Below, piece after piece: positions 4,075-61,802 of a DNA stretch of 64,000 nt; positions within the stretch are counted from its first letter, which is position 1, and every line of letters starts with the position of its first letter. Source of the stretch: an uncultured Gallionella sp. (GTDB lineage: Bacteria > Pseudomonadota > Gammaproteobacteria > Burkholderiales > Gallionellaceae). The stretch spans positions 33,495-97,494 of the forward strand of contig CAYHEM010000005.1 of assembly GCA_964355765.1 (NCBI GenBank), written 5' to 3'. The notes under the pieces were generated by a model. The model had not been told where the DNA came from. It saw nothing but the letters and a program-made list of their open reading frames with translations, and ran no database searches. The position numbers were made by a program, and so were the translations under genes.

Positions 4075-4935
4075 TTACTGGATCAACCCGACCGTGATGA
4101 TCGCCTCATAGGTCCCGTTCTTGCCGTAACGGTTTGAAAAAATCTGCTTCGACAGCACTGCCTTGGTCGTCATGAGGACATCGTCCACTCCAGAACTGAT
4201 CCTGTAGAACCGGTCATGTGCGTCCGGGTCATCCGGATTGTCATGTATACGCGCAAACAGATGGGCCTGATAATTCGATTCATAGAAGGATTCGGGATGA
4301 TTGATGCTGACCGCGATATCCTTTTTAGGCGCCTTGCTTCCGGTGTTTATCCTGATCTCGTAGGGCAAACGGGGTCCGGTGGCATGAACCTCGAATACAT
4401 CCTGAACTGAAGGAGATGTCGTGACGGATATTGTGACTTTCTGATCGGCATCAAAACTGCCAGAGGGGAATATGGCCAGCGCATACCCCTTGAGATCCAC
4501 CGCCTCTCCGAGGGTCGGGACAGTGACGGTGACGGTGCGTTTTTCCAGGCTCATGATGGTAACGATAATCGCTGCATCCGCCGCGCCTGCCACCTCGACT
4601 GAAATATCATTATTTTTCTTGAGTGCAACGGGCTTTGTCAGGATCTTGAACCGATTTCCAAGCTCATCCGGTTTGACGACAACCTTTCCGTTTATACTCA
4701 CCGCGCCACGCGCCACCCGTTCCTCATAATTCATGCCATTCTGGATCGAGATAAAATATTTCTGATTGATGTCGTGAACGGAAAAATGCTTGACCACCCG
4801 TTGCTGCTCGCCGCTTTCACTGGAGAAAAATTCCGGGCCGAAGACAAGCGTATGCCCATGTGCGACAGATACAAAACCATTGCAGAAAAACACCAACAGC
4901 GCAGCCAGCGTATAAATACCGGATATTTTTCTCAT
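4075..4935 (-). CDS. Hypothetical secreted protein
   Basis: ORF 4075..5049. The internal ATG at 4935 gives MRKISGIYTLAALLVFFCNGFVSVAHG, a signal-peptide-like N-terminus. No recognisable catalytic motif. The stretch looks more AT-rich than its neighbours. Confidence 0.55.
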   Translation of the reverse strand: MRKISGIYTLAALLVFFCNGFVSVAHGHTLVFGPEFFSSESGEQQRVVKHFSVHDINQKYFISIQNGMNYEERVARGAVSINGKVVVKPDELGNRFKILTKPVALKKNNDISVEVAGAADAAIIVTIMSLEKRTVTVTVPTLGEAVDLKGYALAIFPSGSFDADQKVTISVTTSPSVQDVFEVHATGPRLPYEIRINTGSKAPKKDIAVSINHPESFYESNYQAHLFARIHDNPDDPDAHDRFYRISSGVDDVLMTTKAVLSKQIFSNRYGKNGTYEAIITVGLIQ

Positions 4936-7924: not shown

Positions 7925-8227
7925 TCAAGCAGGCAACACCTTCCGGAACGGCTGTACGGTGAGCTGGGCGAATACCCCAACGATCGTATAGGGATCGGCA
8001 TCCGCCCATTCCTGCGCCGCCTGCGATGAGGCGAATTCGGCAACGATCAGACTGCCGGTAAAGCCCGCCACACCCGGATCAATGGCATCTACTGCCGGAA
8101 AAGGGCCGGCCAGCAGCAACCGACCTTCATCCTGCAATGCCTGCAAACGTGCCAGATGCGCCGGGCGCGCCGCCATGCGTTTATCCAAACTATCCGGAAC
8201 ATCCTGTCCGATGATCGCATATAACAT
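7925..8227 (-). CDS. YciI family protein
   Basis: 100 aa. MLYAIIGQD...RPAHLARL...GPF pattern typical of YciI-like proteins. Lies next to yciB, as in many proteobacteria. Confidence 0.75.
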
Positions 8228-8352
8228 TCAGGTAGCCTTTCTCGTTTGCCTTCTTTCCCACTGGCGGGATAACCAGCGACCTGGCTGCGGTTTCTTGCGG
8301 CCTAGTCGAATGGCTAGTTGTTTCACCCATAGGATTGAGGAGAGGGTGAGCA

Positions 8353-8895
8353 TCAGTTTGATTCCTTCTTCTCGTCCACGTATTTTGCAAGCCACGCGCT
8401 TTGCGCCAAGATGAATACCAGCATCAATCCGGTGAAGCCAAACAGCTTGAAGTTGACCCAGGCATCTTCAGAGAAGTTGAACGCCACATAAAGATTGATA
8501 AAACCGAGCAGCGCAAAAAACAGGCTCCACATCAGATTGACGCGATGCCAGATATGCAGCGGCAAGGCGATTTTTTCCTGCAATAACGAGCGCATCAGAT
8601 TTTTGTTAAAGAATATATTCGAGATCAACAGAATGGCGGAAAACAGCCAGTACAGAACGGTTGGCTTCAGCTTGATAAAGGTCGCATCGTGCAATATCAG
8701 CGTGGCGCCGCCAAACACGGTGATGATAACGAAGCTCACCCACAACATCACATCGACCTTGCCGTGGCGCCATTTCGTCCAGACAATCTGCACGATGGTC
8801 GCGCCGATGGCCACCGTCGTGGCGACATAGATACCAAATACCTTAAAGGCGATGAAAAACAGAATAATAGGAAACAGGTCGAAGAGTAATTTCAT
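8353..8895 (-). CDS. yciB: Intracellular septation protein A (YciB/IspZ)
   Basis: 180-aa polytopic membrane protein beginning [23 protein letters not shown], the typical YciB N-terminus. Confidence 0.85.
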
Positions 8896-11346: not shown

Positions 11347-13314
11347 ATGTCCGACATCCAATCCGTGTTGCATGAAACCCGAGTATTTAACCCATCCGAA
11401 GACTTTGTCAGACAGGCCAATGTCTCCGGCATGGAAAGTTATCAGGCCATGTGCAAGGCAGCGGAGCAGGACTATGCAGGTTACTGGGCCAAGCTGGCGC
11501 GCGAAACCCTGCTGTGGAAAAAACCGTTTACCAAAACACTGGACGAGAGCAATGCGCCGTTTTTCAAGTGGTTTGAGGACGGCGAGTTGAATGTTTCGCA
11601 TAACTGTCTCGACAAGCATCTTGTCAGCCAGCCGGAAAAAATCGCGATCATTTTCGAAGCCGACGACGGCACGGTGACGAAAATCAATTACCGCGATCTT
11701 CATGCACGCGTCTGCCAGTTTGCCAACGGCCTGAAATCGCGCGGCATCAAAAAAGGCGAGCGCGTCATCATCTACATGCCGATGAGCATCGAGGCGGTCG
11801 TCGCGATGCAGGCCTGCGCGCGCATCGGCGCGATCCATTCGGTGGTATTCGCCGGATTTTCCTCCAGAAGCTTGCATGAGCGCATCACCGATGCCCAGGC
11901 GTGCGCGGTGATTACCGCCGACGCGCAAATGCGCGGCGGCAAGCTGATGCCGCTGAAACCTGCAGTGGACGAAGCATTGACGCTAGGTGGCTGCGACAAA
12001 GTACACAGTGTCGTCGTGTATCGGCGCGCCGCCTGCGAAACCGCGTGGAACACAGCGCATGATGTTTGGTGGCATGATCTGGTGGCGGGACAAAGCGCCA
12101 TCTGCGAACCGGAATGGGTCAGTGCGGAACATCCGCTGTTCATACTCTATACCTCCGGTTCCACCGGCAAACCCAAGGGTGTGCAACATTCCAGCGGCGG
12201 CTATCTGCTGTTGGCGATGCTGTCGATGCAATGGGTGTTCGATTACAAACCGGCCGATATTTTCTGGTGCACCGCAGATGTGGGCTGGGTCACCGGCCAC
12301 AGCTATGTCACCTACGGCCCGCTGGCAATGGGCGCGACGCAGGTGGTATTCGAGGGTGTGCCAACCTGGCCCGATGCAGGTCGCTTCTGGAAGATGATTC
12401 AGGATCATCGGGTGACGATCTTCTATACCGCACCAACCGCGATCCGCTCCCTCATCAAGCTGGGGGGCGACTTGCCGGGAAAATACGATTTGTCCAGCCT
12501 GCGCCTGCTCGGCTCGGTCGGCGAACCGATCAACCCGGAAGCCTGGATGTGGTATTACACCGAAGTCGGCCGCTCGCGCTGCCCGATTGTGGATACCTGG
12601 TGGCAAACCGAAACCGGCGCGCACATGATTGCACCGCTGCCCGGTGCGATGCCGATCAAGCCCGGCACCTGCACGCTGCCCCTGCCCGGCATCATGGCTA
12701 CCATCGTCGATGAAACCGGGGAAGAATTGCATGGTCCGAATGGCGGTTTTCTCGTCATCAAGCGCCCGTTTCCGTCACAAATCCGCACCATCTGGGGCGA
12801 CCCGGAGCGCTATAAAAAAAGTTATTTTCCGGAAGAAATGCGCGGCTATTACCTTGCAGGTGATTCCGCGCACCGCGATGAAGACGGGTATTTCTGGATC
12901 ATGGGGCGCATCGATGATGTGCTGAATGTTTCCGGCCACCGTCTCGGGACGATGGAAATTGAATCGGCGCTGGCTGCCAATCCGCTGGTCGCCGAGGCAG
13001 CCGTGGTCGGCAAGCCGCATGACATCAAGGGGGAAGCGATCGTGGCCTTTGTCGTGTTGAAAAGCGCACGTCCGGACAATCCGGTCAAAGCCAAAGAAAT
13101 AGCCGCAAGCCTGCGCGCCTGGGTGGGAAAGGAAATCGGCTCGATTGCCAAACCCGATGAAATTCGCTTTGGCGATAATCTGCCCAAGACGCGCTCCGGC
13201 AAAATCATGCGCCGCCTGCTGCGCGCCATCGCCAGAGGAGAAGATATTACCCAAGACGTTTCGACACTGGAAAACCCAGCCATTCTCGAACAGTTGAAAA
13301 ACGCTGTGCGCTAA
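11347..13314 (+). CDS. acs: Acetyl-CoA synthetase
   Basis: 655 aa with AMP-binding signature [11 protein letters not shown]. Full-length typical Acs N- and C-termini. Confidence 0.97.
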
Positions 13315-13692
13315 TTGGCCGGGTTTGGTTACGACATAACCCGCCAACGGGTTAGTCTCCACCGCAACAAGCCTCTGCGAGGCGTGTTGTCGGCGCAGGC
13401 TAACATCGCTTGCGATGTTAAGGTGCGCAGCACCGGCCGTAGCCAAAACCCAGCCATTCTCGAACAGTTGAAAAACGCTGTGCGCTAATTGGCCGGGTTT
13501 GGTTACGACATAACCCGCCAACGGGTTAGTCTCCACCGCAACAAGCCTCTGCGAGGCGTGTTGTCGGCGCAGGCTAACATCGCTTGCGATGTTAAGGTGC
13601 GCAGCACCGGCCGTAGCCAAAACCCAGCCATTCTCGAACAGTTGAAAAACGCAGTGCGTTAATTGGCTGGGTTTGGTTACAACATAACCCGC
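13271..13692. repeat. 174-bp tandem repeat: 2 identical units plus a 74-nt diverged partial unit
   Basis: Units start at 13271, 13445 and 13619. Units 1 and 2 are identical by eye. Unit 3 has 4 mismatches over 74 nt and then runs into unique sequence. Each unit starts with the last 44 nt of acs including the stop codon. Confidence 0.95.
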
Positions 13693-14282
13693 TGCTCATT
13701 GTTCCCAGGATTTTCATCAGCCCAATTATTGAGGTATTTCTCCAGCCAGAACAGCCCGACGATGGTTTTGCTGTCGTTGATCTTGCCAGAGCGTATCCAC
13801 GCTATCGCCTCCTGCAGGGGCAATTCGAATACTTCCAGAAATTCACCATCGTCCAGATTGCGCCCTTGTCGCGTCAGGCCGCGCGCCAAGAAATATGCTA
13901 TGCGTTCGTCGGCGTAACCGATGCAAGGCCAGGCAGTGGTAAGGTGCTGCCACTCGCCTGCCGCATAACCGGTCTCTTCCAGCAACTCGCGTTGCGCGGT
14001 AAGCAGAATATCCTCTCCATGATCAATTTTTCCGGCGGGCAGTTCGATGAATTCGCGTTGCGGCGCGTAGCGAAATTGGCGCTCCAGCACCAGATTGCCG
14101 TTGTCCAGCATCGCCAGCACTGCCACCGCGCCGGGGTGGGTGATGTATTCGCGGCTGCCTGTCGCGCCATTCGGCAAAAGCACACTATCCTTGCGCACCT
14201 GCATGAAACTTCCTTCATACACCAATGCCGTATCCAGACGCTTTTCTTCCAGATCCACTATCACTCCTTGCTTCCGGGCCAA
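13677..14282 (-). CDS. Nudix hydrolase, ADP-ribose pyrophosphatase-like
   Basis: Nudix box GKIDHGEDILLTAQRELLEETG, 201 aa. The 3' end lies inside the third (partial) repeat unit. Confidence 0.8.
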   Translation of the reverse strand: MARKQGVIVDLEEKRLDTALVYEGSFMQVRKDSVLLPNGATGSREYITHPGAVAVLAMLDNGNLVLERQFRYAPQREFIELPAGKIDHGEDILLTAQRELLEETGYAAGEWQHLTTAWPCIGYADERIAYFLARGLTRQGRNLDDGEFLEVFELPLQEAIAWIRSGKINDSKTIVGLFWLEKYLNNWADENPGNNEQRVML

Positions 14283-14294
14283 AGCAGCTTCCGC

Positions 14295-16259
14295 TCAGCA
14301 AGCTCCGGGTTTTTCGAACTTCCAGTCAACAGCGCCTTCATCGTCCGAAAAAAAACGCGACGTGCGGCTATCCGTCTTCTGTATGGATATCCTGATATCG
14401 TTGTCCGTCATGTCCCTGAAAAAATTCAACCCACTTTCAACCTTCATTGTTTGTCCAGTGGTTTGACCGGCAACCTTATCTATCACACAAGCAATATTTT
14501 CCCCCATCCCGTCGCGGTCATGCATGACGGTAGAAAGCTCCGCTGCGGAGGCCTTGATTGACTTATCCAGCTCACCGATTTCCTCTTCCAGCATCACCAC
14601 TTGACTAGCCGCTTTGGCATTTTTCGCAACCAGTTTTTGCCAGGCGCCGATCCGATCTTCCGCCAGCTTGATTGCGCCGCTTCTGATTTCTTCTGCCAGC
14701 GTAAAATATCTTGAGACGTCCCGGTCCGACTTTATCCGTTCGATCTGACGCATTCTGGTTCCGATATTCGCCTGAGCATTGACCATTTCCTTTTTAAGGT
14801 CAGCGACACGCTGGTCAACGCCGGAAAAATCCGGGATCAATAGCGTCACCAGTGTCTCCCTGCCTTTGCGCTCATCAGAAGAAATAACCTTGATTCTCTC
14901 CGCCACAACCCTGCATCCCTCAACCTTGTCGGCGAACACTTCTTCACCAATGATTTCGCAATTCACCGCATATTCGATGCGAACAGTCTTGCCGATAATC
15001 ATGCTGCTCTCGCAAAACCTGACCGTCACTTCGCCGTCATAAGCGAGAATTACCGCGCGCGAAGCGTTCTTGTCCAATGTGACATTTCCGCCCGTTGCTT
15101 CCGCGCGACCGCCGGATAGATTGCCCCTGACGCAAATGTTACCATCCTGCGAAATCACGCTACCGAACACATTGGAAAGGAAAGTCATGTGCTTTCCCCT
15201 GACTACACGACCTTCCTGTACCTCGCCATGCTCGATAAATTCGTCTACCCCCAAAATCAGATCGCCCGTCGTCCTGGCACTAACACCTTCTTTAGTTTCA
15301 ATTTTTTTGGTAATTGACACTTTATTTGAATGGCTGTCCAGTGACAGGAACCCATCCAGTGCCGCCACAATATATTCGCCATCCGGTTCCTGCTCGATGC
15401 ACGTCCCGAATGAAGCAAGCGCATGCAAATCCAGATCCTTTGGCATTCTCGGTTCGATGACGTCACCGGTCACCTTGCGTCCCTGCTTGCCCAGCTTGCG
15501 CGCAAGCTTCTTGAGCATGCGCTCCCCTTTGACCATTTGCGGAAAGCGGTTCTCAAAAACACGCAAGTCGACCCTGCCGTTCGCCAGCATTCTGGGGGAA
15601 TTATCCCGATGCAAATGCTTGGAGACCTCCCTGATCTCGGCGTCGCTGCCTTCGGTGGGATCAAGACACCGTGCAATCGTCACGCGTGCCGGTGTACTGC
15701 TGGCAATGGCCTGCTGCACGGCATTTGCATCGATGCCGAACTTCACACCCTTCATCCACATATCGGCGATAAACTCGTCAAAATTCAACTTGGCCGGCTG
15801 CAACTCGATCTTGTTCTCATACCCGACGATGCTGGCAGTACCACTTTCGTCCGGCTCGCCATAAATCGGCTGCTCACTGCTTACTTCGATACTGACCGGC
15901 TCAAAAACATACTCGGCGCATTTTCCGCCTTCAAGCATCTTGACTGCCCTGTAGAGCGCGCGGCGCTCTGGCAAAAACCCGACAATTTCCGCCGCCAGTT
16001 TCACTTCCGTGCACTGGTCTTGTATCTCTGCCAGCCAATCGGCGTCATAAAGAAGCTTGAGAAAGACGCCATAATCCAGGCCCGAAAACAGCGCCTCTCC
16101 GGTGAACAGGCGCTCGACAAACTGCTCGAAGCCGCCTGCCGTCCGCAAGACCGGCAAGTCTATAAACACACCTTCGGGCCGCCTGGAGACAAAACCGGGA
16201 ATGATCAGGCCATTGAGGTCAGCATTCGCTAAACCAGGCAAGGCCATGCCTATATCCAC
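14295..16259 (-). CDS. FapA/DUF342-like protein (beta-helix plus coiled coil)
   Basis: 654 aa. The central region has short repetitive beta-strand-like segments (GNICVRGNLSGGRAEATGGNVTLD...VTVRFCE...VRIEYAV...), followed by a long coiled-coil-like segment. Assigned by overall pattern, not by a sharp motif. Confidence 0.5.
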   Translation of the reverse strand: MDIGMALPGLANADLNGLIIPGFVSRRPEGVFIDLPVLRTAGGFEQFVERLFTGEALFSGLDYGVFLKLLYDADWLAEIQDQCTEVKLAAEIVGFLPERRALYRAVKMLEGGKCAEYVFEPVSIEVSSEQPIYGEPDESGTASIVGYENKIELQPAKLNFDEFIADMWMKGVKFGIDANAVQQAIASSTPARVTIARCLDPTEGSDAEIREVSKHLHRDNSPRMLANGRVDLRVFENRFPQMVKGERMLKKLARKLGKQGRKVTGDVIEPRMPKDLDLHALASFGTCIEQEPDGEYIVAALDGFLSLDSHSNKVSITKKIETKEGVSARTTGDLILGVDEFIEHGEVQEGRVVRGKHMTFLSNVFGSVISQDGNICVRGNLSGGRAEATGGNVTLDKNASRAVILAYDGEVTVRFCESSMIIGKTVRIEYAVNCEIIGEEVFADKVEGCRVVAERIKVISSDERKGRETLVTLLIPDFSGVDQRVADLKKEMVNAQANIGTRMRQIERIKSDRDVSRYFTLAEEIRSGAIKLAEDRIGAWQKLVAKNAKAASQVVMLEEEIGELDKSIKASAAELSTVMHDRDGMGENIACVIDKVAGQTTGQTMKVESGLNFFRDMTDNDIRISIQKTDSRTSRFFSDDEGAVDWKFEKPGAC

Positions 16260-16331
16260 CCTGTCGGTTCACTACTGCCCATAGTGCGTTGCGAAACGAT
16301 TGCGTTCACCACCATTTCTCCCCAGTTCCCT

Positions 16332-17531
16332 TTAAAGACTTTCAAATATGCCCGCCGCACCCATTCCCGTTCCGATGCACATGGTCACCATGCCGTATTT
16401 CTGCTTGCGGCTGCGCAGACCGTGCAGCAGGGTCGCGGTGCGGATCGCGCCGGTTGCGCCGAGCGGGTGGCCGAGGGCAATCGCGCCGCCGAGCGGATTC
16501 ACCTTTGCCGGATCGAGGCCGACATCGCTAATCACAGCCAGCGTCTGCGCGGCGAAGGCTTCGTTCAGTTCGATCCAGTCCATATCGTCGAGCCGCAAAC
16601 CGACCTGCTGCAACACGCGTGGAATAGCTTCTTTCGGGCCGATACCCATGATTTCCGGCGGCACGCCCGCAACGCTGAAACCCAGAAACTTGCCGATGGG
16701 CTCAAGGTTATAACGCTTCAGCGCCGCCCCGCTGCACAGCAGCACCGCGCCTGCGCCGTCCGACATTTGTGAACTATTGCCTGCCGTAACCGAACCATTT
16801 TGCGCGAACACCGGCCTGAGTCCGGCCAGCGCATCAAGCGAGGTATCGGCACGCGGGCCTTCATCCTGTGCTGCCTCGCGCATCTTCAAACTGGCCGCGC
16901 GTGTCTGCATATCCGGCTGATGCTCGGCAATTTGATACGGCGTAATCTCATTCCTGAAGTCGCCATTCGCTATCGCCGCAATGGCACGCTGATGACTTTG
17001 CAGCGCAAAAGCATCCTGCGCCTCGCGCGACACATGCCATTTCTTAGCCACCTTCTCCGCCGTCAGCCCCATTCCATAGGCGATGGCGACATGGTCGTCG
17101 CCCGCGAATATCTGCGGATTGAATGCCACCTTGTTGCCCATCATCGGAATCATGCTCATGCTTTCCACACCTGCCGCGATCATCACCTCTGCCTCACCAA
17201 GCCGGATGCGATCCGCCGCATTCGCCACTGCCTGCAAACCGGACGAGCAAAAACGGTTTACCGTTACCCCCGGAACGCCATGCGGCAGCCCTGCCAGCAA
17301 CAACGCGATGCGCGCGACGTTCATGCCCTGCTCCGCCTCCGGCATCGCACAGCCGACGATGACATCACCGATCGCCGCCGGGTCAAGTGCCGGTGCTTGC
17401 GCCAGCACGCTCTTTAATACATGCACCAGCAGATCGTCGGGGCGCGTGTTGCGGAACATCCCGCGCGGCGCTTTGCCGACCGGCGTACGTGTCGCGGCAA
17501 CAATGTAGGCTTCCTGAATTTGTTTGGTCAT
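16332..17531 (-). CDS. Acetyl-CoA C-acyltransferase (thiolase)
   Basis: Active-site region NRFCSSGLQA and C-terminal CIGTGMGAA, 399 aa. Confidence 0.95.
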   Translation of the reverse strand: MTKQIQEAYIVAATRTPVGKAPRGMFRNTRPDDLLVHVLKSVLAQAPALDPAAIGDVIVGCAMPEAEQGMNVARIALLLAGLPHGVPGVTVNRFCSSGLQAVANAADRIRLGEAEVMIAAGVESMSMIPMMGNKVAFNPQIFAGDDHVAIAYGMGLTAEKVAKKWHVSREAQDAFALQSHQRAIAAIANGDFRNEITPYQIAEHQPDMQTRAASLKMREAAQDEGPRADTSLDALAGLRPVFAQNGSVTAGNSSQMSDGAGAVLLCSGAALKRYNLEPIGKFLGFSVAGVPPEIMGIGPKEAIPRVLQQVGLRLDDMDWIELNEAFAAQTLAVISDVGLDPAKVNPLGGAIALGHPLGATGAIRTATLLHGLRSRKQKYGMVTMCIGTGMGAAGIFESL

Positions 17532-17560
17532 GATGCTCTCCGCTCAGGCTCTGATCCCGC

Positions 17561-17722
17561 GACTATACATAGCGGTGGAAATCGTAGCGAGCGATTTTGC
17601 AGCGGAGAGAGACCAGAAAGCGGGAACCTGAGGATTCGGGGCGGGGCACGAGTCCGCTGCGGAATCCCGCGGCGAATCTATGTCGCTATGTGCAATCGAC
17701 AACCGCGCTGCCACATTATTTT
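17561..17722. repeat. Imperfect palindromic intergenic element with CGCTATGTATA-type ends
   Basis: The left end GACTATACATAGCGG and right end GTCGCTATGTGCAATCGAC are inverted relative to each other. GATTTTGCAGCGGA and TCCGCTGCGGAATC are an inner inverted pair. The right end is similar to 53278..53325. Confidence 0.35.
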
Positions 17723-18046
17723 TCCACCTGAGACACGTCCCGCACCGCACCCTTGTCGGCCGAAGTCACCATAAGGCGTTGGCCTGCGAACGGCGGAGCA
17801 GTGGCTCCACGCAAGTGGAGATGCGACCCGGCAGCAGTGCCCGCTGCCATCATATTCCTTCAAGCTGCGACACGTCCCGCACCGCGCCCTTGTCGGCCGA
17901 AGTCACCACAAGGCGTTGGCCTGCGAACGGCGGAGCAGTGGCTCCACGCAAGTGGAGATGCGACCCGGCAGCAGTGCCCGCTGCCATCATATTCCTTCAA
18001 GCTGCGACACGTCCCGCACCGCGCCCTTGTCGGCCGAAGTCACCAT
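17709..18046. repeat. 137-bp tandem repeat: 2 near-identical units plus a diverged ~63-nt partial unit
   Basis: GACACGTCCC recurs at 17732, 17869 and 18006 (period 137). Each unit contains the last ~57 nt of ilvD (minus strand) including the stop codon. Confidence 0.9.
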
Positions 18047-19840
18047 AGCAGCGTAGGCACGCAATGCGACCGATACCTTGCGCTGACGGTCTGTCGCGGG
18101 CTTCCATGCCTGCCTGCCCCTGGCCTGCATCGCGACGCGGCGGCGCACCAATTCCTCATCGGAAATCGCCAAATTGATACTGCGCTCCGGGATGTCGATC
18201 TCGATGGTGTCACCCTCCTCCACCAGCCCGATCGCGCCACACTGCGCAGCCTCCGGCGAAACATGGCCGATACTTAAACCCGAAGTGCCGCCGGAAAAAC
18301 GCCCGTCGGTAAGCAATGCGCATGCCTTGCCCAGACCTCTGGATTTCAGGTATGAAGTCGGATACAGCATCTCCTGCATGCCCGGCCCGCCCTTGGGTCC
18401 TTCATAGCGGATCACCACCACATCGCCCGCCACAATCTGATCGGCGAGGATGGCAGCCACTGCATCGTCCTGGCTTTCGAACACGCGCGCGCGTCCGGTG
18501 AATTTCAGGATACTTTCATCCACTCCGGCGGTTTTGACAATGCAGCCATCCGGTGCGATGTTGCCGTGCAACACCGCCAGCCCGCCGTCCTGACTGTGCG
18601 CATGCGCCTTGTCGCGGATACAACCGTTGGCACGATCTGCATCCAGCTCCGGATAATGCATGGATTGCGAGAAGGCAAGGGTGGTGACAATCCCGCCAGG
18701 CGCGGCGCGGAAAAATTTTTTCACGGCTTCATCCTGTGTCTGCACGATGTCCCACTGCTGCAAACCCTCGCGCAATGTCGCGCTGTGTATCGTCCCGGCG
18801 CCGGCATGCAACAGGCCGGCCCGGTCCAGTTCCCCCAGAATCGCGGGTATCCCGCCGGCACGATGCACGTCTTCCATGTGATATTCGGAGGAAGGTGCGA
18901 CCTTGCACAGCGTCGGCACATGGCGCGACAGGCGATCCATATCCTTCATGGTGAAGTTCACTTGCGCTTCCTGCGCAATCGCCAGCAGATGCAACACGGT
19001 ATTGGTCGAGCCGCCCATCGAGATATCCAGCGTCATGGCATTTTCGAATGCGTCGAACGTGGCGATGGAACGCGGCAACACACTCGCGTCGTCCTGTTCG
19101 TAGTAGCGTTTGCACAATTCGACGATGACGCGCCCGGCGCGCAAAAACAACTGCTTGCGCTCGGCATGCGTCGCCACCAGCGAACCGTTGCCGGGCAGCG
19201 CCAGTCCCAGCGCCTCGGCCAGGCAATTCATCGAATTGGCGGTAAACATGCCGGAACAGGAACCGCAGGTCGGGCAGGCGGAACGCTCGATGGCTTCACA
19301 TTCCGCCGCACTGACTTTGTCGTCCGCCGCTGCCACCATCGCATCCACCAGGTCCAGGCCCCGGGTCTGACCCTGCCAGTTGACCTTACCCGCCTCCATC
19401 GGCCCGCCCGAGACGAAAACCACCGGGATATTCAGGCGCATCGCCGCCATCAGCATCCCCGGTGTAATCTTGTCGCAATTTGAAATGCACACCAGCGCAT
19501 CGGCGCAATGCGCATTGACCATGTACTCCACACTGTCTGCGATCAGGTCGCGGCTCGGCAACGAATACAACATGCCGTCATGCCCCATCGCAATGCCGTC
19601 GTCGATGGCGATGGTGTTGAACTCCTTGGCGATGCCGCCCGCCTTCTCGATCTCGCGCGCCACCAGCTGCCCCATATCCTTGAGGTGGACATGGCCGGGC
19701 ACAAACTGGGTGAACGAATTGGCGATGGCGATAATGGGCTTGCCAAAATCGCCTTCCGTCATGCCGGTGGCGCGCCACAAGGCGCGCGCGCCGGCCATGT
19801 TGCGGCCATGGGTGGAAGTGCGGGAACGGTAAGCGGGCAT
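17987..19840 (-). CDS. ilvD: Dihydroxy-acid dehydratase
   Basis: 617 aa with IlvD/Edd signature [12 protein letters not shown]. Full-length. Confidence 0.97.
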
Positions 19841-19879
19841 GTTGTCTCTCTCTGTAAGTTTGGACCTGAAAAAGCGTTT

Positions 19880-20003
19880 ATCCGCAGATTACGCAGATTG
19901 GCGCAGATTCAAAGACATGACAATGATGATCTGTGCAACCATAGCGGGCGCAAGAATTTCATGGGGCCGGGTTGTAATCGGTTTAATCTGCGCAATCTGT
20001 GGA
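19880..20003. repeat. MITE-like element with phased CGCAGATT terminal repeats
   Basis: CGCAGATT occurs at 19883, 19892 and 19902 (9-10 nt spacing). Inverted copies AATCTGCG (19985) and CAATCTGTGG (19993), plus ATCTGTGC at 19929. Confidence 0.5.
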
Positions 20004-20066
20004 CGATTGCGACTCCAAGGTTAAAGCACACGTATAATCGAAGCTCTGATTCTACCCGATTCATCC

Positions 20067-20849
20067 ATGCTCGTTCATCCACAATTCGACCCCGTCGCGC
20101 TGCAACTCGGCCCACTCGCCATTCACTGGTACGGGCTGATGTATCTGGCCGGTTTCATGACTTTTCTGTGGCTGGGGCGCAAGCGTATCGCCATGCTGAA
20201 TCATCCGCAGCTCAACACCAAACTGCTCGACGACTTGCTGTTTTATGGTGTGCTCGGCGTCATCCTGGGCGGGCGTCTGGGTTATGTGCTGTTCTATAAA
20301 ACCTCATATTACCTGGCTCATCCGCTGGAAATTCTCGCGCTGTGGCAGGGCGGCATGTCTTTTCATGGCGGCTTTCTCGGCGTGCTGCTGGCGATGGCGT
20401 GGCTTGCCTATCAACGGAATTTGCGCTGGCTACAACTGACCGACTTCATCGCCCCGCTGGTGCCGCCGGGCCTTGCCTTCGGACGACTGGGCAATTTCAT
20501 CAACGGCGAGCTGTGGGGACGCCCGACTGACCTGCCATGGGCAATGGTTTTCCCGCAGGCGGACAATCTGCCACGCCACCCCTCACAGCTCTATCAATTT
20601 GCCTTGGAAGGCATTTTGCTGTTTGCGCTGCTCTGGCTGTATGCGCGCCGGCCGCGCCCCGTTGGTGCGGTATCCGGGCTGTTCCTGATCGGCTATGGCA
20701 GCATGCGTTTTCTCGCCGAGTTTGCCCGTGAGCCGGATAACTTCCTCGGTCTGCTGGCCTTCGGCATGAGCATGGGACAATGGCTAAGTCTGCCGATGAT
20801 GATTGCCGGTGCACTGCTGATGCGTTACAGCATCCGGCGCGGCGCTTGA
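20067..20849 (+). CDS. lgt: Prolipoprotein diacylglyceryl transferase
   Basis: [16 protein letters not shown] signature, polytopic, 260 aa. Confidence 0.95.
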
Positions 20850-20905
20850 CACCCGCAGCCCTCTCGCACACTATTCTCGCCGTTAAACATTACTGAAACA
20901 TCATC

Positions 20906-22183
20906 TTGGACGACATTTCCTTAGGCTGGTTGTTTGGCATTTTATTGTTGTTACTGGTTTTCAGCGGATTTTTTTCCGGCTCGGAAACCAGCATGATGGC
21001 AATCAACCGCTATCGCCTGAATGCCCTGGTTCGCAAAGGCAATCGCAGTGCCAAGCTGGTCAACCGTCTGCTGGGCCAGGTGGACAAACTGCTCGGTTCG
21101 ATTCTGTTCGGCAACACGCTGGTCAACGTCGCCGCAGCAGCATTGGCCAACATCATCGTATTGCGCTTGTTCGGACAAAACGACTGGGCGATCCTGATGG
21201 GTACGCTGGCAGTCACCTTTGCGATTCTGGTATTCAGCGAAATTATGCCGAAGATACTGGCTGCCAGCCACCCGGAGCGCATTGCGCTACCTGCAAGCTA
21301 CCTGCTCACGCCGCTGATTACCCTGTTTCATCCGGTGGTTTCGGTAGCGACCGCCCTGGTAAAAGGCATGTTGTGGCTGTTGCGCATAAAAATAGAGACG
21401 GACCAGACCAAGCAGAAAATCACGCTGGAGGAATTGCGCGGGCTGGTGCTGGATGCCGGGCATTTCCTGCCGCGCAAGCACCAGAAAATGCTGCTGAACC
21501 TGGTCGATCTGGAGCGCATCACCGTGAATGATGTGATGATTCCGCGCAATCAGGTTGAGGCGTTGGATATCAATGCGAACGCAAACGAATTGCGCCAGCA
21601 GATCATTACCTGCCACCACACGCTGCTGCCGGTTTACGCAGATTCACCGAGCAACATCATCGGCATCCTGCATATCAAACGCGTGCTCACCCTGTTGCAA
21701 ACCGAGGCACTGGACACCACGCAATTGCGGGAAATTTTGCATGAACCGTATTTCATTCCCTCCGACACGCCGCTACTCAGGCAACTACAACAATTCCAGG
21801 AACGCCACACAAGGCTGGGGCTGGTGGTGGATGAATATGGCGAATTACTCGGACTGGTAACGCTGGAAAATATTCTCGAGGAAATCGTTGGTGAATTCAC
21901 TACCCATTCACCCGCGCAAACCGGCAAGTTTCTGCGTCAGGCGGACGGCAGTTGGCTACTGGAAGGAAGCAGCAGCTTACGCGAGTTGAATCGCAAACTC
22001 GGACTGCATCTGCCGCTGGATAATGCAAAAACGTTGAACGGCCTGATTCTTGAGCATCTTGAAGATATACCGGAAGCCGGCACCAGCCTGAAAATTGCCG
22101 GGCATCCGATAGAAATCATTCAGATGCAGGATCGCATCGTAAAAGTGGCGCGTATTTTTCCGGCGCAAGTGGAAAAACAGTAG
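20906..22183 (+). CDS. HlyC/CorC family transporter (DUF21-CBS-CorC_HlyC)
   Basis: N-terminal 4-TM DUF21 region, CBS pair, C-terminal CorC/HlyC domain. TTG start at 20906. Confidence 0.88.
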   Translation: MDDISLGWLFGILLLLLVFSGFFSGSETSMMAINRYRLNALVRKGNRSAKLVNRLLGQVDKLLGSILFGNTLVNVAAAALANIIVLRLFGQNDWAILMGTLAVTFAILVFSEIMPKILAASHPERIALPASYLLTPLITLFHPVVSVATALVKGMLWLLRIKIETDQTKQKITLEELRGLVLDAGHFLPRKHQKMLLNLVDLERITVNDVMIPRNQVEALDINANANELRQQIITCHHTLLPVYADSPSNIIGILHIKRVLTLLQTEALDTTQLREILHEPYFIPSDTPLLRQLQQFQERHTRLGLVVDEYGELLGLVTLENILEEIVGEFTTHSPAQTGKFLRQADGSWLLEGSSSLRELNRKLGLHLPLDNAKTLNGLILEHLEDIPEAGTSLKIAGHPIEIIQMQDRIVKVARIFPAQVEKQ

Positions 22184-22249
22184 GAAGTGGGGAACGGCAG
22201 AGGGTGGCTGATTTTCCTATTCCCCACTTTCCACTTCCCACTTTCCACC
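22169..22249 (+). repeat. Purine-arm/pyrimidine-arm imperfect palindrome (intercistronic element, copy 1)
   Basis: The GTGGAAAAACAGTAGGAAGTGGGGAA arm, a loop, and the ATTCCCCACTTTCCACTTCCCACTTTCCAC arm. Overlaps the stop codon of the CorC-type gene. Confidence 0.7.
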
Positions 22250-22320
22250 TTGGCTTTACAAGAGGAACAAAGCTCGTCATCATGTTTATCAACGTTAGTG
22301 GATGACCCAAGGGGGGCGCT

Positions 22321-23538
22321 ATGGCTGTCGCACCAAAAGCCACAAAAGCAAAAGAATATTCCTATCTCTGGGAAGGCAAAGACAAGACTGGCAAGATAAT
22401 CAAAGGTGAGATGCGCGCACCCGGCGAAGCCACCGTGTCTGCTCATCTGCGCCGCCAGGGCATCAATATTTCCAAGATAAAACGACTGCGCGGCAGCACC
22501 AAACCTGTTACTGAAAAAGACATTTCGCTGTTCACTCGCCAGCTTGCCACCATGATGAAATCCGGTGTTCCTTTGCTTCAGGCGTTCGATATCGTGGGAA
22601 AAGGCCACAGCAACCCATCCGTGGCGCGGCTGCTGTTCGACATCAAGACCGATGTGGAAACCGGCAGCAGCCTGCAACAATCGTTCAAAAAATATCCGCT
22701 GTACTTTGATGAACTGTACTGCAACCTTATCGGTGCCGGCGAAGCCGCCGGCATTCTGGATACTTTGCTGGACCGGCTGGCAACCTACAAGGAAAAAATC
22801 CAGGCCATCAAGAGCAAGATCAAGTCCGCGTTGTTCTATCCGATCTCCATCATCGTCGTGGCGTTTATCATTACCGCAGTGATCATGATTTTTGTGATCC
22901 CGGCGTTCAAGGAGTTGTTTTCCAGCTTCGGCGCAGATTTGCCGGCGCCCACATTATTTATCATGGCTGTCTCGGATATCTTCGTGACCTATTGGTGGGC
23001 GATCTTCGGCGGAGTCGGCGGCGGCTTCTACACCTTCTTTTATTTCTGGAAACGCAGCAAAAAAATGCAGGCAGTAATGGACCGGTTGATGCTAAAGCTG
23101 CCCGTTTTCGGCGAACTGATCCGCAAGGCGAGCATCGCACGCTGGGCTCGCACACTTGCGACCATGTTTGCCGCCGGCGTGCCACTGGTGGAAGCGTTTG
23201 ACTCGGTAGCCGGAGCAGCGGGCAATGCAGTGTATTTCGATGCCACGAAAAAAATCCAGCGCGATGTAACCACCGGCAACAGCCTGACCGTGGCCATGCA
23301 GAACACCGAAGTCTTTCCGAGCATGGTGCTGCAAATGGTAGCCATCGGCGAGGAAGCCGGCTCGCTGGATGCCATGCTGAGCAAGGTGGCCGATTTCTAC
23401 GAGGGCGAGGTGGACGATGCAGTGGAGGCGCTATCCAGCCTAATGGAGCCCATCATCATGGTAGTGCTGGGCACGCTGATCGGCGGCATGGTGATTGCGA
23501 TGTACCTGCCGATTTTCAAGATGGGTCAGGTGGTTTGA
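22321..23538 (+). CDS. pilC: Type IV pilus assembly platform protein PilC (GspF family)
   Basis: 405 aa with duplicated GspF-type domains and three TM segments, followed by pilD. Confidence 0.93.
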   Translation: MAVAPKATKAKEYSYLWEGKDKTGKIIKGEMRAPGEATVSAHLRRQGINISKIKRLRGSTKPVTEKDISLFTRQLATMMKSGVPLLQAFDIVGKGHSNPSVARLLFDIKTDVETGSSLQQSFKKYPLYFDELYCNLIGAGEAAGILDTLLDRLATYKEKIQAIKSKIKSALFYPISIIVVAFIITAVIMIFVIPAFKELFSSFGADLPAPTLFIMAVSDIFVTYWWAIFGGVGGGFYTFFYFWKRSKKMQAVMDRLMLKLPVFGELIRKASIARWARTLATMFAAGVPLVEAFDSVAGAAGNAVYFDATKKIQRDVTTGNSLTVAMQNTEVFPSMVLQMVAIGEEAGSLDAMLSKVADFYEGEVDDAVEALSSLMEPIIMVVLGTLIGGMVIAMYLPIFKMGQVV

Positions 23539-23542
23539 TGAT

Positions 23543-23657
23543 GAGAGTGAGTAATAAGTGGAAAGTAGCAAGTGGAAAGTGCAATGTGGGAAGTGCAACC
23601 ACTCGCCATTCACTACTCGCTACTCACTACTTTCCGCCCCTCACTTCCCGCTTTCCA
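23543..23657 (+). repeat. Purine-arm/pyrimidine-arm imperfect palindrome (copy 2, largest)
   Basis: The left arm is GAGAGTGAGTAATAAGTGGAAAGTAGCAAGTGGAAAGTGCAATGTGGGAAGTG (2 C). The right arm is CACTCGCCATTCACTACTCGCTACTCACTACTTTCCGCCCCTCACTTCCCGCTTTCC (4 G). Confidence 0.75.
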
Positions 23658-23659
23658 GT

Positions 23660-23782
23660 ATGAGCCTCCTGGAATTAATGCAAACTGTCCCTGCTACCTT
23701 CATCGGCGCGTACCTGATCATCGGCCTGATGGTCGGCAGCTTTAGCTCCGACATAACCCGCCGGCGGGTTAGTCTTCACTGA
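23660..23782 (+). pseudogene. Displaced 5' fragment of a prepilin peptidase gene (28 codons), fused to a hairpin element
   Basis: MSLLELMQTVPATFIGAYLIIGLMVGSF aligns with the pilD N-terminus MSDLFQLLQSSPLAFTSACAVLGLMVGSF. Homology stops at 23743, where the hairpin motif begins. Confidence 0.6.
23749..23779. repeat. 31-nt hairpin motif CGACATAACCCGCCGGCGGGTTAGTCTTCAC
   Basis: Perfect 18-nt palindrome TAACCCGCCGGCGGGTTA (23755-23772). 28/31 identical to 13332-13362 and 13506-13536 in the acs tandem repeat. Confidence 0.85.
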
Positions 23783-23792
23783 AACCACCGAC

Positions 23793-24665
23793 ATGTCTGA
23801 TCTATTCCAGCTTCTTCAATCCTCGCCCCTTGCGTTTACCAGCGCCTGCGCTGTATTAGGGTTAATGGTCGGTAGTTTTCTGAATGTCGTCATCCACCGC
23901 CTGCCGAAAATGCTGGAACTTGGCTGGCAACACCAATGTGCCGAGCTGCGCGGTGAAGAACCGACCCTATTGCCCACGTACAATCTCATCGTTCCGCGCT
24001 CGGCCTGCCCGCATTGTCACCACGCCATCAGCGCGTGGGAAAACATCCCGGTCATCAGTTATCTGCTGTTGCGCGGCAAATGCAGGGGATGCGGCGCGGC
24101 CATCTCGCTGCGCTATCCGGCCATTGAGGCGATCAGCGGTATTCTGTGCGGATTTGCAGCCTGGCATTTCGGCTTTGGCCTGGCTACTGCCGCTGTGTTA
24201 TTTCTCATCTGGGCCTTGCTGGCACTCACGGCGATTGACTTCGACACGCAATTATTGCCGGACGATATCACCCTGCCCCTGCTGTGGGCTGGGCTCCTGC
24301 TTAACCTGTTTGATGTTTTTACCAATTTGCAAAGTGCCGTGCTGGGCGCCGTATTCGGCTATCTCTCACTGTGGGGCGTGTATTGGCTGTTCAAGATCGT
24401 CACCGGAAAAGAAGGCATGGGCTACGGCGATTTCAAACTGCTCGCCGCGCTGGGTGCCTGGCTGGGCTGGCAAATGCTGCCACTCATCATCCTGTCGTCC
24501 TCGCTGGTGGGTGCAGTGGTTGGCATCACCTTGATGGTGGTGGCCAAGCATGGGCGCAACATTCCCATTCCATTTGGTCCCTATCTCGCCGGCGGCGGAC
24601 TGATTGCGCTGTTCTGGGGACCAACCCTGACGCAAAGCTATCTGCAACTGCTCTCTACTTCATGA
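23793..24665 (+). CDS. pilD: Prepilin peptidase/N-methyltransferase (A24 family)
   Basis: CPHC...CRGC zinc-type motif and catalytic-Asp motif GMGYGDFKLLAALG, 290 aa. Confidence 0.93.
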   Translation: MSDLFQLLQSSPLAFTSACAVLGLMVGSFLNVVIHRLPKMLELGWQHQCAELRGEEPTLLPTYNLIVPRSACPHCHHAISAWENIPVISYLLLRGKCRGCGAAISLRYPAIEAISGILCGFAAWHFGFGLATAAVLFLIWALLALTAIDFDTQLLPDDITLPLLWAGLLLNLFDVFTNLQSAVLGAVFGYLSLWGVYWLFKIVTGKEGMGYGDFKLLAALGAWLGWQMLPLIILSSSLVGAVVGITLMVVAKHGRNIPIPFGPYLAGGGLIALFWGPTLTQSYLQLLSTS

Positions 24666-25336
24666 CCATTCGACTGATTATCGGACTCACTGGCGGGATC
24701 GGCAGCGGCAAGAGCACCGTTGCCACGCTGTTTGCGGAACATGGTGCAGGCATTATCGACACGGATGCTATCGCCCACCACCTGACGCAAACCAACGGCG
24801 AAGCCATTGCCACGATCCGTGCAGCTTTTGGCGATGAATACGTGACGAATGACGGCGCACTGGATCGCGCCAAGATGCGCGGGCTAATTTTTTCGGACGC
24901 TTCCGCCAAGCAACGACTGGAACATATTTTGCACCCCCAGATATTCGAACAAGCCAAGGCGCAATTACGTCAATTGCAGGCCAAGCCTTACATTCTCGTT
25001 GTCGTGCCACTGCTGCCAGAAAGCCGCACCTTCCGGCAACTGGTGCAGCGCGTGCTGGTAGTGGATTGCGACGAAAACACCCAGATTACGCGCGTCATCG
25101 GGCGCAGCCGCATGAATGAAATGGAAGTACGCACCATCATCGCCCGGCAAACTCCGCGCGCTGAACGGCTGCAACTGGCAGACGACATCATCCACAACGA
25201 CTCCAGTCTGGGCAACCTGTCAGAACAGGTTGCCGTTCTGCATGAACGCTACCTGAAACACACAACAACAATTGACGATACAGGGATATCCCATATATCT
25301 TTCGCCTCTGGAACTCCTTCACCAAAACTGCCGTGA
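24662..25336 (+). CDS. coaE: Dephospho-CoA kinase
   Basis: GLTGGIGSGKST P-loop at the N-terminus. ATGA overlap with the pilD stop. The longer ORF 24371..25336 is rejected because its upstream part runs out of frame through pilD. Confidence 0.9.
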   Translation: MTIRLIIGLTGGIGSGKSTVATLFAEHGAGIIDTDAIAHHLTQTNGEAIATIRAAFGDEYVTNDGALDRAKMRGLIFSDASAKQRLEHILHPQIFEQAKAQLRQLQAKPYILVVVPLLPESRTFRQLVQRVLVVDCDENTQITRVIGRSRMNEMEVRTIIARQTPRAERLQLADDIIHNDSSLGNLSEQVAVLHERYLKHTTTIDDTGISHISFASGTPSPKLP

Positions 25337-61041: not shown

Positions 61042-61112
61042 AGTGATTGTTTGATCAACGACTTCTTGTCCACGAGTGGCCAGTTGGTTTATCAGGACAA
61101 GGCGTTTTGAAG

Positions 61113-61610
61113 TTATCCTTCCTTGCGCCGACGCGTTGCAAACGACTTGAAAGGTTTGCGCTGTCCCGGATGTCTATAGGGCTCCTCCACCGGTTTGGGC
61201 TTGGGTATCAGCAGGTTTTTGCCGGAGCTTGTTTGGGCGGCCTGATGCGCTAAAACGGCGGTGGCAATTTCTTCCACCGTTAACAGAATGATCGTGTGTT
61301 CGCCGTTAAGGTGGTAATCGGCGAGATTCTCCTTGATGTCGAAGATGCGCTCCTGACTCTTGGCCTTCCTGGCATGGCCGGACAATATCTGCTGCGCATC
61401 CGGCGTCAGCGCGTAGCCGCCATCCTGCTCGCAGATCAAACCGTATTCGGAAAGCCGGTAAAACGAATCGGATAATTTAGTTTCAGGAGGAATCGCGCCA
61501 TGCGTCAGATCGGCCGCAGCGATGATCTCGACAAGCTCTGCTGGACGCCGTTTGGCCGCAAGCGCCATCGCCAGCAAGAGGATTGCATCAACATCGTGGA
61601 CTGGGTACAT
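61113..61610 (-). CDS. Hypothetical protein with basic C-terminal tail
   Basis: The ATG at 61610 gives MYPVHDVDAILLLAMALAAKRRPAELVEI.... No motif recognised. Confidence 0.5.
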   Translation of the reverse strand: MYPVHDVDAILLLAMALAAKRRPAELVEIIAAADLTHGAIPPETKLSDSFYRLSEYGLICEQDGGYALTPDAQQILSGHARKAKSQERIFDIKENLADYHLNGEHTIILLTVEEIATAVLAHQAAQTSSGKNLLIPKPKPVEEPYRHPGQRKPFKSFATRRRKEG

Positions 61611-61802
61611 CGTGTAACCTTTAAATGAGAGGGGAAAAAGCCAACTTGCCGGGGACAAACGCGCACGGGTTCGGGTGAGATGCGCTATTTTCGCATTTTA
61701 TGCGTAGCAGCGTCGCTCATAACTGACGGCGCCAGCTTCGGGTAACTTTCAAGCGGGGGCAGATCGGAACGTTTTAGCGGAATTTGTTGGCATTGTTCCA
61801 TG

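Follow-up and report, generated by a model that had tools for sequence, protein, structure and literature searches.

A 64,000-nt stretch of an uncultured Gallionella sp. genome (contig CAYHEM010000005.1, positions 33,495–97,494; hereafter the window) carries three loci, at acs/Nudix, ilvD and pilD, where an intact gene end and a further copy of that end are separated by a short spacer. We tentatively favour a reading in which small palindromic modules entered these sites long ago by duplicative insertion and were later co-opted as cis-acting structures, with the resulting arrays turned over by unequal crossing-over. A first-pass annotation had described a gene end, a hairpin-rich spacer and a second copy at each of the three genes, and all three arrangements were found where it had placed them, in a form more pronounced than it had reported. 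The comparisons below support the view that all three are insertions plus duplications and not native sequence.

Profile scans (Pfam/NCBIfam, 56 long open reading frames (ORFs)) showed that the window is a housekeeping chromosomal stretch, assigned to an iron-oxidising, Gallionella-like betaproteobacterium of groundwater from the names of its nearest Nudix homologues and the origins of the contigs, with the gene order acs, Nudix (convergent), a FapA-like gene, thiolase, ilvD, lgt, a CNNM transporter gene, pilC, pilD, coaE and zapD. The repeats at acs and ilvD were called by Tandem Repeats Finder (TRF) together with a direct-repeat search of the window. Self-BLAST E-values at the three loci ranged from 1e-15 to 1e-120 and nothing comparable was found in the remaining 53 kb. 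We refer to the gene end as A, the spacer as B, the distal partial copy as A′ and the hairpin that holds a shared 31-nt motif as E. The acs array consists of a 174-nt unit repeated 2.4 times (13271–13692) and the ilvD array of a 137-nt unit repeated 2.5 times on the minus strand (17706–18047), both with the architecture A-B-A-B-A′. The original description of two gene-end copies per locus fits pilD, which has one fragment and the intact gene, but not acs and ilvD, whose tandem arrays hold three copies. At acs, the gene end makes up the first 44 nt of the unit, units 1 and 2 are identical and the third copy is partial (74 nt, 95% identity to A1); the repeated block A also carries the 3′ end of the convergent Nudix gene. 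The acs copies differ by T>A, C>T, C>T and G>A, and both differences within codons are synonymous (GCT/GCA, CGC/CGT). The ilvD proximal and distal copies (C>T, G>T plus an indel) show two synonymous changes in 15 codons, and their last four to five codons differ, including a one-codon indel (QLEGI-stop versus QVEK-stop). At pilD, an 87-nt copy of the 5′ end is followed by a 46-nt spacer and then by intact pilD. The second copy had also been described as in frame; the ilvD unit is no multiple of 3, and at this locus the description applies solely to an ORF whose ATG overlaps the ilvD stop.

Syntenic relatives gave the polarity of these arrangements. The first-pass annotation had proposed such a comparison, and the insert was indeed absent from L006 at ilvD and from L005 at acs/Nudix. 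In L006, ilvD has an uninterrupted end of the distal type (QVEK-stop). In L005 (3055–3070), acs and Nudix converge and their stops overlap by 4 nt (AATTAG). The distal acs copy of L007 and L019 has retained this overlap with the Nudix stop. The proposal that the resident end is displaced distally was therefore borne out at ilvD and acs, where the empty sites carry the distal-type end. From these alignments, the copy adjoining the neighbouring gene is ancestral, and the proximal copy plus spacer is the addition. Recombination between the repeats would regenerate an 'empty' site, and therefore absence can be secondary.

Table 1. Features of the acs/Nudix, ilvD and pilD loci (positions within the window)
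Feature	Position	Strand	Evidence or remark
acs (acetate--CoA ligase), intact	11347..13314	+	NCBIfam NF001208, 1045 bits
acs array copy A1: last 41 nt of acs plus stop, Nudix 3′-end relic, E left arm	13271..13344	+	Repeat search, TRF
acs spacer B1, 100 nt: E right arm, hairpin 2, palindrome GCGCAGGCTAACATCGC/GCGATGTTAAGGTGCGC	13345..13444	+	
E motif core at acs	13334..13358 (unit 1), 13508-13532 (second copy)	+	Motif search, 0 mismatches
acs array second unit (A2 + B2), 100% identity to unit 1	13445..13618	+	Absent from sister contig L002
acs array distal partial copy A′, ending in E loop, supplying present Nudix stop	13619..13692	+	
Nudix hydrolase, convergent with acs	13677..14258	-	
ilvD (dihydroxy-acid dehydratase), intact	17987..19840	-	NCBIfam NF009103, 1186 bits
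ilvD array proximal copy A1: last 58 nt of ilvD plus 8 nt, ends QLEGI-stop	17979..18047	-	
ilvD spacer B1 (GGCACTGCTGCC...CTCCACTTGCGTGGAG...CGCAGGCCAACGCCTT)	17911..17978	-	
ilvD array second unit (A2 17842-17910, B2 17774-17841)	17774..17910	-	98% identity to unit 1
ilvD array distal copy A′, ancestral-type end QVEK-stop	17706..17773	-	End matches empty site L006
Small ORF, 40 codons: copy of first 29 pilD codons (23660-23746), then SSDITRRRVSLH and stop read from E	23660..23782	+	
E at pilD: outer arms GTCGGCAG.TTTAG / CTGAAAC..CCGAC, core 23751-23775	23729..23792	+	
pilD (prepilin peptidase), intact	23793..24665	+	Pfam A24_N_bact, Peptidase_A24

The spacers were more conserved than the coding DNA beside them, both at ilvD (spacer compared with A) and at pilD (E compared with the pilD start). 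The ilvD arrangement has the same junctions in four lineages, of which L043 lacks the pilD duplication and differs in its downstream gene. Between these lineages 1–9 of 69 spacer positions differ (1–13%), compared with 11–24% in the flanking A copies, so that the spacer evolves 2–10 times slower than its flanks. Likewise, mean pairwise identity in eight genomes was 0.91 for E, 0.74 for the first 90 nt of intact pilD and 0.61 for the upstream fragment. At acs, the arrangement was found in three lineages (window, L007 and L019), with spacers that are homologous but remodelled (shuffle p = 0.002–0.012). Since the same junctions recur in several diverged lineages, each architecture has a single old origin and was remodelled later. 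The suggestion that these loci are recent footprints or scars of allele replacement was not upheld, given the single origins, shared junctions and conserved spacers. Homology-facilitated illegitimate recombination, or repeated allele replacement after DNA uptake, would account for spare copies that resemble bona fide alleles with third-position changes, and pil genes are present. However, identical junctions in the different lineages argue for single old events, the spacers outdo coding DNA in conservation and they have no similarity to local flanks; we regard this explanation as very improbable. An origin of the spacers from local flanks or from decayed older gene-end copies was rejected, as Smith-Waterman comparison against shuffles gave nothing significant.

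Conservation of the ilvD spacer is unlikely to reflect protein coding. Its substitutions fall 15, 12 and 3 by codon position in the frame of the ORF from the ATG at the ilvD stop; therefore the spacer does not behave as coding sequence, and a protein-coding role was rejected. The distal copy A′ (3, 12 and 29), by contrast, resembles the functional copy (12, 12 and 54). We also observed that this ORF, of 44–48 codons, begins at an ATG that overlaps the ilvD stop (TGATG/ATGA), crosses the spacer, terminates with the spare IlvD tail and is open in all four lineages (17724–17858 and 17861–17995, both on the minus strand, and 6001–6147 in L043). In L043, the next gene begins 2 nt past its stop.

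E connects two of the three loci. The 31-nt motif ACATAACCCGCCNNCGGGTTAGTCT occurs three times in the window (twice at acs and once at pilD, with 0 expected) and is the core of the ~70-nt hairpin E. The first-pass annotation had noticed the same hairpin motif at two loci, and acs and pilD indeed share it with 0 mismatches. At pilD, the outer arms of E are GTCGGCAGTTTTAG and CTGAAACAGCCGAC; the VGSF codons of the pilD fragment make up the 5′ arm, and the 3′ arm extends as far as the pilD ATG. E at this site is the predicted minimum-energy fold (z = -3.9). In the E stem 94% of cells are paired, versus 24–43% with the partners slid; stem positions are invariant, wobble positions are fixed and the loop varies. 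When 185,579 species genomes were scanned for the motif, matches came from 11 metagenome-assembled genomes (MAGs), with one match per genome, eight from Gallionella/Nitrosomonadales and three from Burkholderiales/Alcaligenaceae. All eight of the former, which belong to different species, have the pilD arrangement. In the other three, E stands alone in intergenic DNA without a duplication. A metagenome scan for E that excluded the pilD context found one further locus only, another acs site, and collections of plasmid, phage and viral sequences contained no match to E. The single match per genome, in a scan that did not extend to whole genomes of the window's own species, led us to reject E as a highly repeated or dispersed element, and readings of E as a hammerhead, CRISPR repeat or attC were dropped by eye because motif order or size did not fit.

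The three solo copies of E lie at 4690–4783 in L008, 4497–4590 in L011 and 3484–3577 in L017. Each sits in a conserved intergenic block of ~125 nt (TTTGCGTCC...CTTTGCGAAAAT...ATGATGG...E...CTCGTTTTCAAC), and the neighbouring genes differ among the three MAGs. The block looks like a small independent transcription unit.

At pilD, the duplicated piece has become a small ORF. The fragment shares 41% amino-acid identity with PilD residues 3–36 (BLASTP E = 2e-7). The ORF is orthologous in the window, L009, L016 and L018 (MSLLELLQTVPAAF.G.CL..GLMVGSF followed by SSDITR.RVSLH-stop), and substitutions in these four fall 45, 9 and 75 by codon position. From this pattern, the mini-ORF, which would encode a hydrophobic peptide of ~40 residues, is under purifying selection. 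Therefore, the pilD piece that had been called a displaced gene end is better described as a small ORF under such selection. It ends 13 nt ahead of the pilD ATG; its start, in some genomes, is a TAATG that overlaps the pilC stop. Searches of protein databases gave homologues in one to three clusters, too few to measure their distribution. We propose that E and a translated mini-ORF together probably couple or gate pilD translation, with the 3′ arm of the predicted hairpin abutting the pilD ATG.

A ~100-nt hairpin built of GTGGAAAGT/GTGGGAAGT-type repeats separates the pilC stop from the mini-ORF (23556–23657), and an inverse partner of its sequence is found upstream of pilC (22204–22248). L009 has the same kind of post-pilC hairpin, which gave spurious microRNA matches in Rfam. 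L016 has no such hairpin, and the pilC TAATG follows directly.

The acs locus shows how a spacer was remodelled. Spacer B1 folds as DNA at -43.2 kcal/mol (z = -5.1), and the acs unit is predicted to fold with a closing stem. The 5′ part of A1, AAAACCCAGCCA, pairs with TGGCYGGGTTT directly after the stop codon. This terminal stem (AAACCCNGC... / ...GCNGGGTTT) is retained with differing sequences in four lineages (window, L019, L007 and L005) and is already found in the empty site of L005, where Nudix codons form its 3′ arm. We rejected the idea that the inverted repeat behind the acs stop arose by fold-back, because the same stem pre-exists in that site. In the window, the C-terminal Nudix tail (...NNEQRVML-stop) is read from the repeat, and in relatives the Nudix protein ends ...DGN-stop. 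Compared with L007 and L019, E plus hairpin 2 form a discrete 62-nt indel block in the window spacer, alongside lineage-specific additions. A protein-coding role of the acs spacer was rejected, as the ORF is closed in L019.

This remodelling bears on plain tandem duplication, in which 60–100 nt across a gene terminus would be duplicated head to tail first, by slipped mispairing or unequal exchange, and palindromes would accumulate later in the spare junction. The L007 acs spacer is very short, and E plus hairpin 2 were clearly inserted into it later; moreover, the arrays do grow by whole units, and the process needs no enzyme, of which none was found. On the other hand, every case has a spacer and a spacer-free duplication was never observed. 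Short tandem duplications are normally lost fast, yet these persist across species. The A/B junctions share TGATGG-like sequences, and three cases lie within 10.5 kb with none in the other 53 kb. We consider this origin unlikely, although it keeps an appreciable share of our confidence.

Two side observations concern the acs region. A FapA_N-domain gene (14295–16259, minus strand) between thiolase and Nudix occurs in the window and L007 and is absent from L005; therefore, gene content varies inside an otherwise syntenic block. At the contig end of L006 (2540–2615), the acs terminal sequence is duplicated in perfect inverted orientation (CTCCATCTTCCTCGAACAGCTT...AAGCTGTTCGAGGAAGATGGAG), which is probably an assembly artefact at a hairpin-prone site.

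Copy number and end type have changed within the arrays. Unit number differs between a SPAdes contig and a near-identical MEGAHIT k127 contig; the sister contigs are L002 at acs and L004 at ilvD. The MEGAHIT version has exactly one unit fewer at acs and at ilvD, where the second unit is missing from L004; therefore, the basic state is A-B-A′. The extra unit arose by recent expansion or else reflects a difference in assembly. Among relatives, L015 has two diverged units, the copies in L014 are near-identical and those in L012 partly so. The proximal ilvD end carries a derived codon shared by three lineages. L043 has its two end variants the other way round, so that the derived end sits distally. 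The coding-like substitution pattern of A′, the swap in L043 and the near-identical copies in L014 fit refreshment by unequal crossing-over or gene conversion. If so, the spare copies look like alleles because they are refreshed from the working copy. A metagenome assembly artefact, with strain variants joined in tandem, would agree with the copy-number differences between the SPAdes and MEGAHIT k127 contigs at both loci. However, A-B-A′ was found in independent assemblies, samples and lineages, including L014, which is apparently long-read, and the spacer is unique sequence. An artefact is barely credible as an explanation for the architecture; just the unit number (one or two) is really in doubt from assembly.

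The layout also invites comparison with mobile elements. Miniature integrative elements, with a gene end plus spacer unit (135–174 nt) moved in trans by an integrase encoded elsewhere and bringing a replacement end, would produce an attL-element-attR layout with the resident end displaced. Such elements would also explain the derived proximal ilvD codon of three lineages, the tandem units (as repeated integrations) and the same hairpin at two loci. The first-pass annotation reported no integrase or transposase, in agreement with our finding of none among the 56 long window ORFs. A reading of the motif as a dispersed att-like site did not survive, as the motif is single-copy in almost every genome that carries it and the window has no linked recombinase. 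L043 carries the derived end distally, three target genes would require three specificities, the spacers are under long-term constraint and not decaying, and 135–174 bp is very small for a double-stranded circle. We therefore judge this model decidedly unlikely.

An insertion-sequence remnant would instead have made a long target duplication, followed by hairpin-mediated 'nearly precise excision' that left the inverted tips as a palindrome. E is essentially two inverted arms plus a loop, and local hopping would explain the clustering of the three sites. Long target duplications have a precedent: IS1549 and IS1634 make long, variable ones of 8–514 bp (PMC2266710). As in those elements, the insert here lies between direct repeats of tens of bp of target, with a length that varies by site. 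In contrast, the window yielded neither a transposase nor a full-length element, the spacers span 28–100 nt, only E is palindromic, and the host is a betaproteobacterium and not Mycoplasma or Mycobacterium. Furthermore, the best match between the E arms is in their inner parts, away from the outer tips, the ilvD spacer does not form a palindrome, and plasmid and phage collections yielded no insertion sequence that matched. A remnant of this kind seems quite improbable.

In our preferred reading, duplicative insertion followed by co-option, a short palindromic non-coding module would have been installed at a gene terminus, namely in the ilvD stop region, at the overlapping acs/Nudix stops and at codon 29 of pilD. 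Each installation would have come with a 63–90-nt direct duplication of the target, and therefore every gene would have kept an intact end. The likeliest mechanism would be a small non-autonomous hairpin element that makes widely staggered cuts, with long target-site duplication at TGATGG/TAATTGG-like sites; such sequences are shared by the A/B junctions. An insertion-type origin draws support from the solo copies of E without duplication, from other palindromic elements of these genomes at TGATG overlaps and from the long, variable target duplications of IS1549 and IS1634. That selection then kept the modules, as cis-acting nucleic-acid structures, is seen in their pattern of conservation. 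Meanwhile, the direct repeats would allow unequal crossing-over and gene conversion, giving two-unit arrays, refreshed spare copies and swapped ends.

Several observations weigh against this reading. Profile scans of the 56 long window ORFs found no integrase, transposase, recombinase or reverse transcriptase and no parent element. Duplications of 63–90 nt are far longer than ordinary target-site duplications, and the reading offers no account of why three sites cluster within 10.5 kb. E is single-copy in almost every genome found carrying it, and therefore shows no sign of current mobility; its stem is conserved without compensatory covariation. The ilvD spacer has neither the E core nor terminal inverted repeats, is not palindromic and gave no covariation in RNAalifold, and its similarity to the acs spacer is suggestive but weak (p about 0.075). 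The coding-like pattern of the ilvD A′ copy could come from translation as well as from conversion. The L007 acs spacer, the oldest-looking, spans just ~28–43 nt. Finally, no canonical Rho-independent terminator was predicted in any spacer. Between pilC and pilD, a canonical terminator is present in L043, a lineage without E.

Further searches gave no match to known families. With Rfam 15, nothing reached an E-value <= 1 in 12500–25000 and nothing reached the gathering score across the window, and loci carrying E or a second hairpin family, R, had no Rfam match. A literature search for these sequences returned no relevant match, and the profile scans of the window showed no RAYT-type (REP-associated tyrosine) transposase.

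R is a dispersed hairpin family of ~65 nt (CTGATGAAACAACTAGCCATTCGACTAAGC-stem-loop-stem-AAGTCGCTGGTTAT) that we encountered alongside E. The window copy (8266–8330, minus strand) lies between ispA (8353–8895) and a YCII-family gene (7925–8227); further copies were seen in L015 (four), L010 (one), three IMG/VR contigs and L029. The inner stem of R covaries, with double changes at four pairs. A covariance model built from nine R copies found 8266–8330 (E-value 1e-15) and not the hairpin E at pilD or acs, and membership of E in R was rejected. A resemblance exists between GACTAA-stem-TTAGTC and the reverse complement of E, which is a lead only; TAG or GTAG precedes the palindrome in both E and R, and copy number is low. 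The R model also gave a weak match at 61048–61095 on the minus strand (E-value 0.024; CTGATAAACCAACTGGCCACTCG...AAGTCGTTGATCA), between an ORF at 61113–61658 and a DbpA-like helicase gene, which looks like a degenerate R copy without the inner hairpin. R (in the window and L029) and the long post-pilC hairpin sit at TGATG stop/start overlaps, where flanking short overlap repeats were seen by eye.

Known systems share parts of this architecture. The prophage e14 and phage 21 integrate into icd, and genomic islands integrate into the 3′ ends of tRNA or protein genes. As there, the working end here adjoins the gene body, an allele-like copy is displaced beyond the insert and differences are often synonymous. 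In contrast to those elements, the insert here is just 46–100 nt, no integrase, island or kilobases of element DNA were found in the window, the spacer is conserved across species, one 5′ end is duplicated and units are tandemly amplified. The layout resembles prophage integration without the element or integrase, and is best filed as a variant of duplicative insertion plus exaptation. REP, REPIN and BIME sequences and miniature inverted-repeat transposable elements (MITEs; Correia, RPE) are short conserved imperfect palindromes at gene junctions, and REP and MITE insertions are not known to make 60–90-nt duplications. REP palindromes are extragenic, have a conserved 5′ tetranucleotide and occur in tens to hundreds of copies together with a RAYT gene. 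E resembles them in its conserved stem base and variable loop, and the related-looking R family is dispersed with covarying stems. However, E is nearly always single-copy, lies inside duplicated coding sequence and has no RAYT-type transposase in view. As with MITE or insertion-sequence insertions, target repeats flank the insert and relatives have empty sites. Such inserts carry terminal inverted repeats; here, E at pilD is a long hairpin, the acs unit folds with a closing stem and the ilvD spacer has no repeats of this kind. Diversity-generating retroelements pair a variable region at a gene 3′ end with a nearby template repeat as second copy, with adenine-specific differences. The window likewise has a 3′ end, a second copy and a hairpin after the first, but no reverse transcriptase was found in it, the differences are not adenine-specific and the targets are housekeeping enzymes.

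For pilD, the closest functional parallels are regulatory upstream ORFs with mRNA hairpins, as in SecM-secA, MifM-yidC2 and VemP-secDF2, and classical translational coupling. In common with these, a short ORF encoding a membrane-type segment directly precedes a membrane-protein gene, and a conserved predicted hairpin abuts the start codon by its 3′ arm. The 5′ arm of this hairpin would lie inside the ORF. The pilD case differs in that the ORF copies the N-terminus of the very gene it would regulate and that the same hairpin also occurs in the acs 3′ untranslated region and alone in other bacteria. A bolder proposal, which we consider unlikely, is that these loci represent an undescribed class of small structured module that installs itself in gene termini by 60–90-nt target duplication and becomes domesticated afterwards. 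In this scheme, E and the duplicated first transmembrane segment at pilD would act together as a translated sensor or coupling device, gating prepilin peptidase synthesis in the manner of SecM or MifM.

Duplicated gene ends are usually taken for prophage or island scars. In the present case that architecture is tiny, occurs across the family and is under selection. There is also a practical warning for annotation: gene calling easily goes wrong at the spare ends and at the small ORFs that cross them, and assemblies easily collapse them. If insertion with long target duplication is true, hairpin modules can enter coding DNA or overlapping gene junctions without gene disruption. If the pilD mini-ORF and hairpin are regulatory, an upstream regulatory ORF would have been born from the start of the very gene it regulates.

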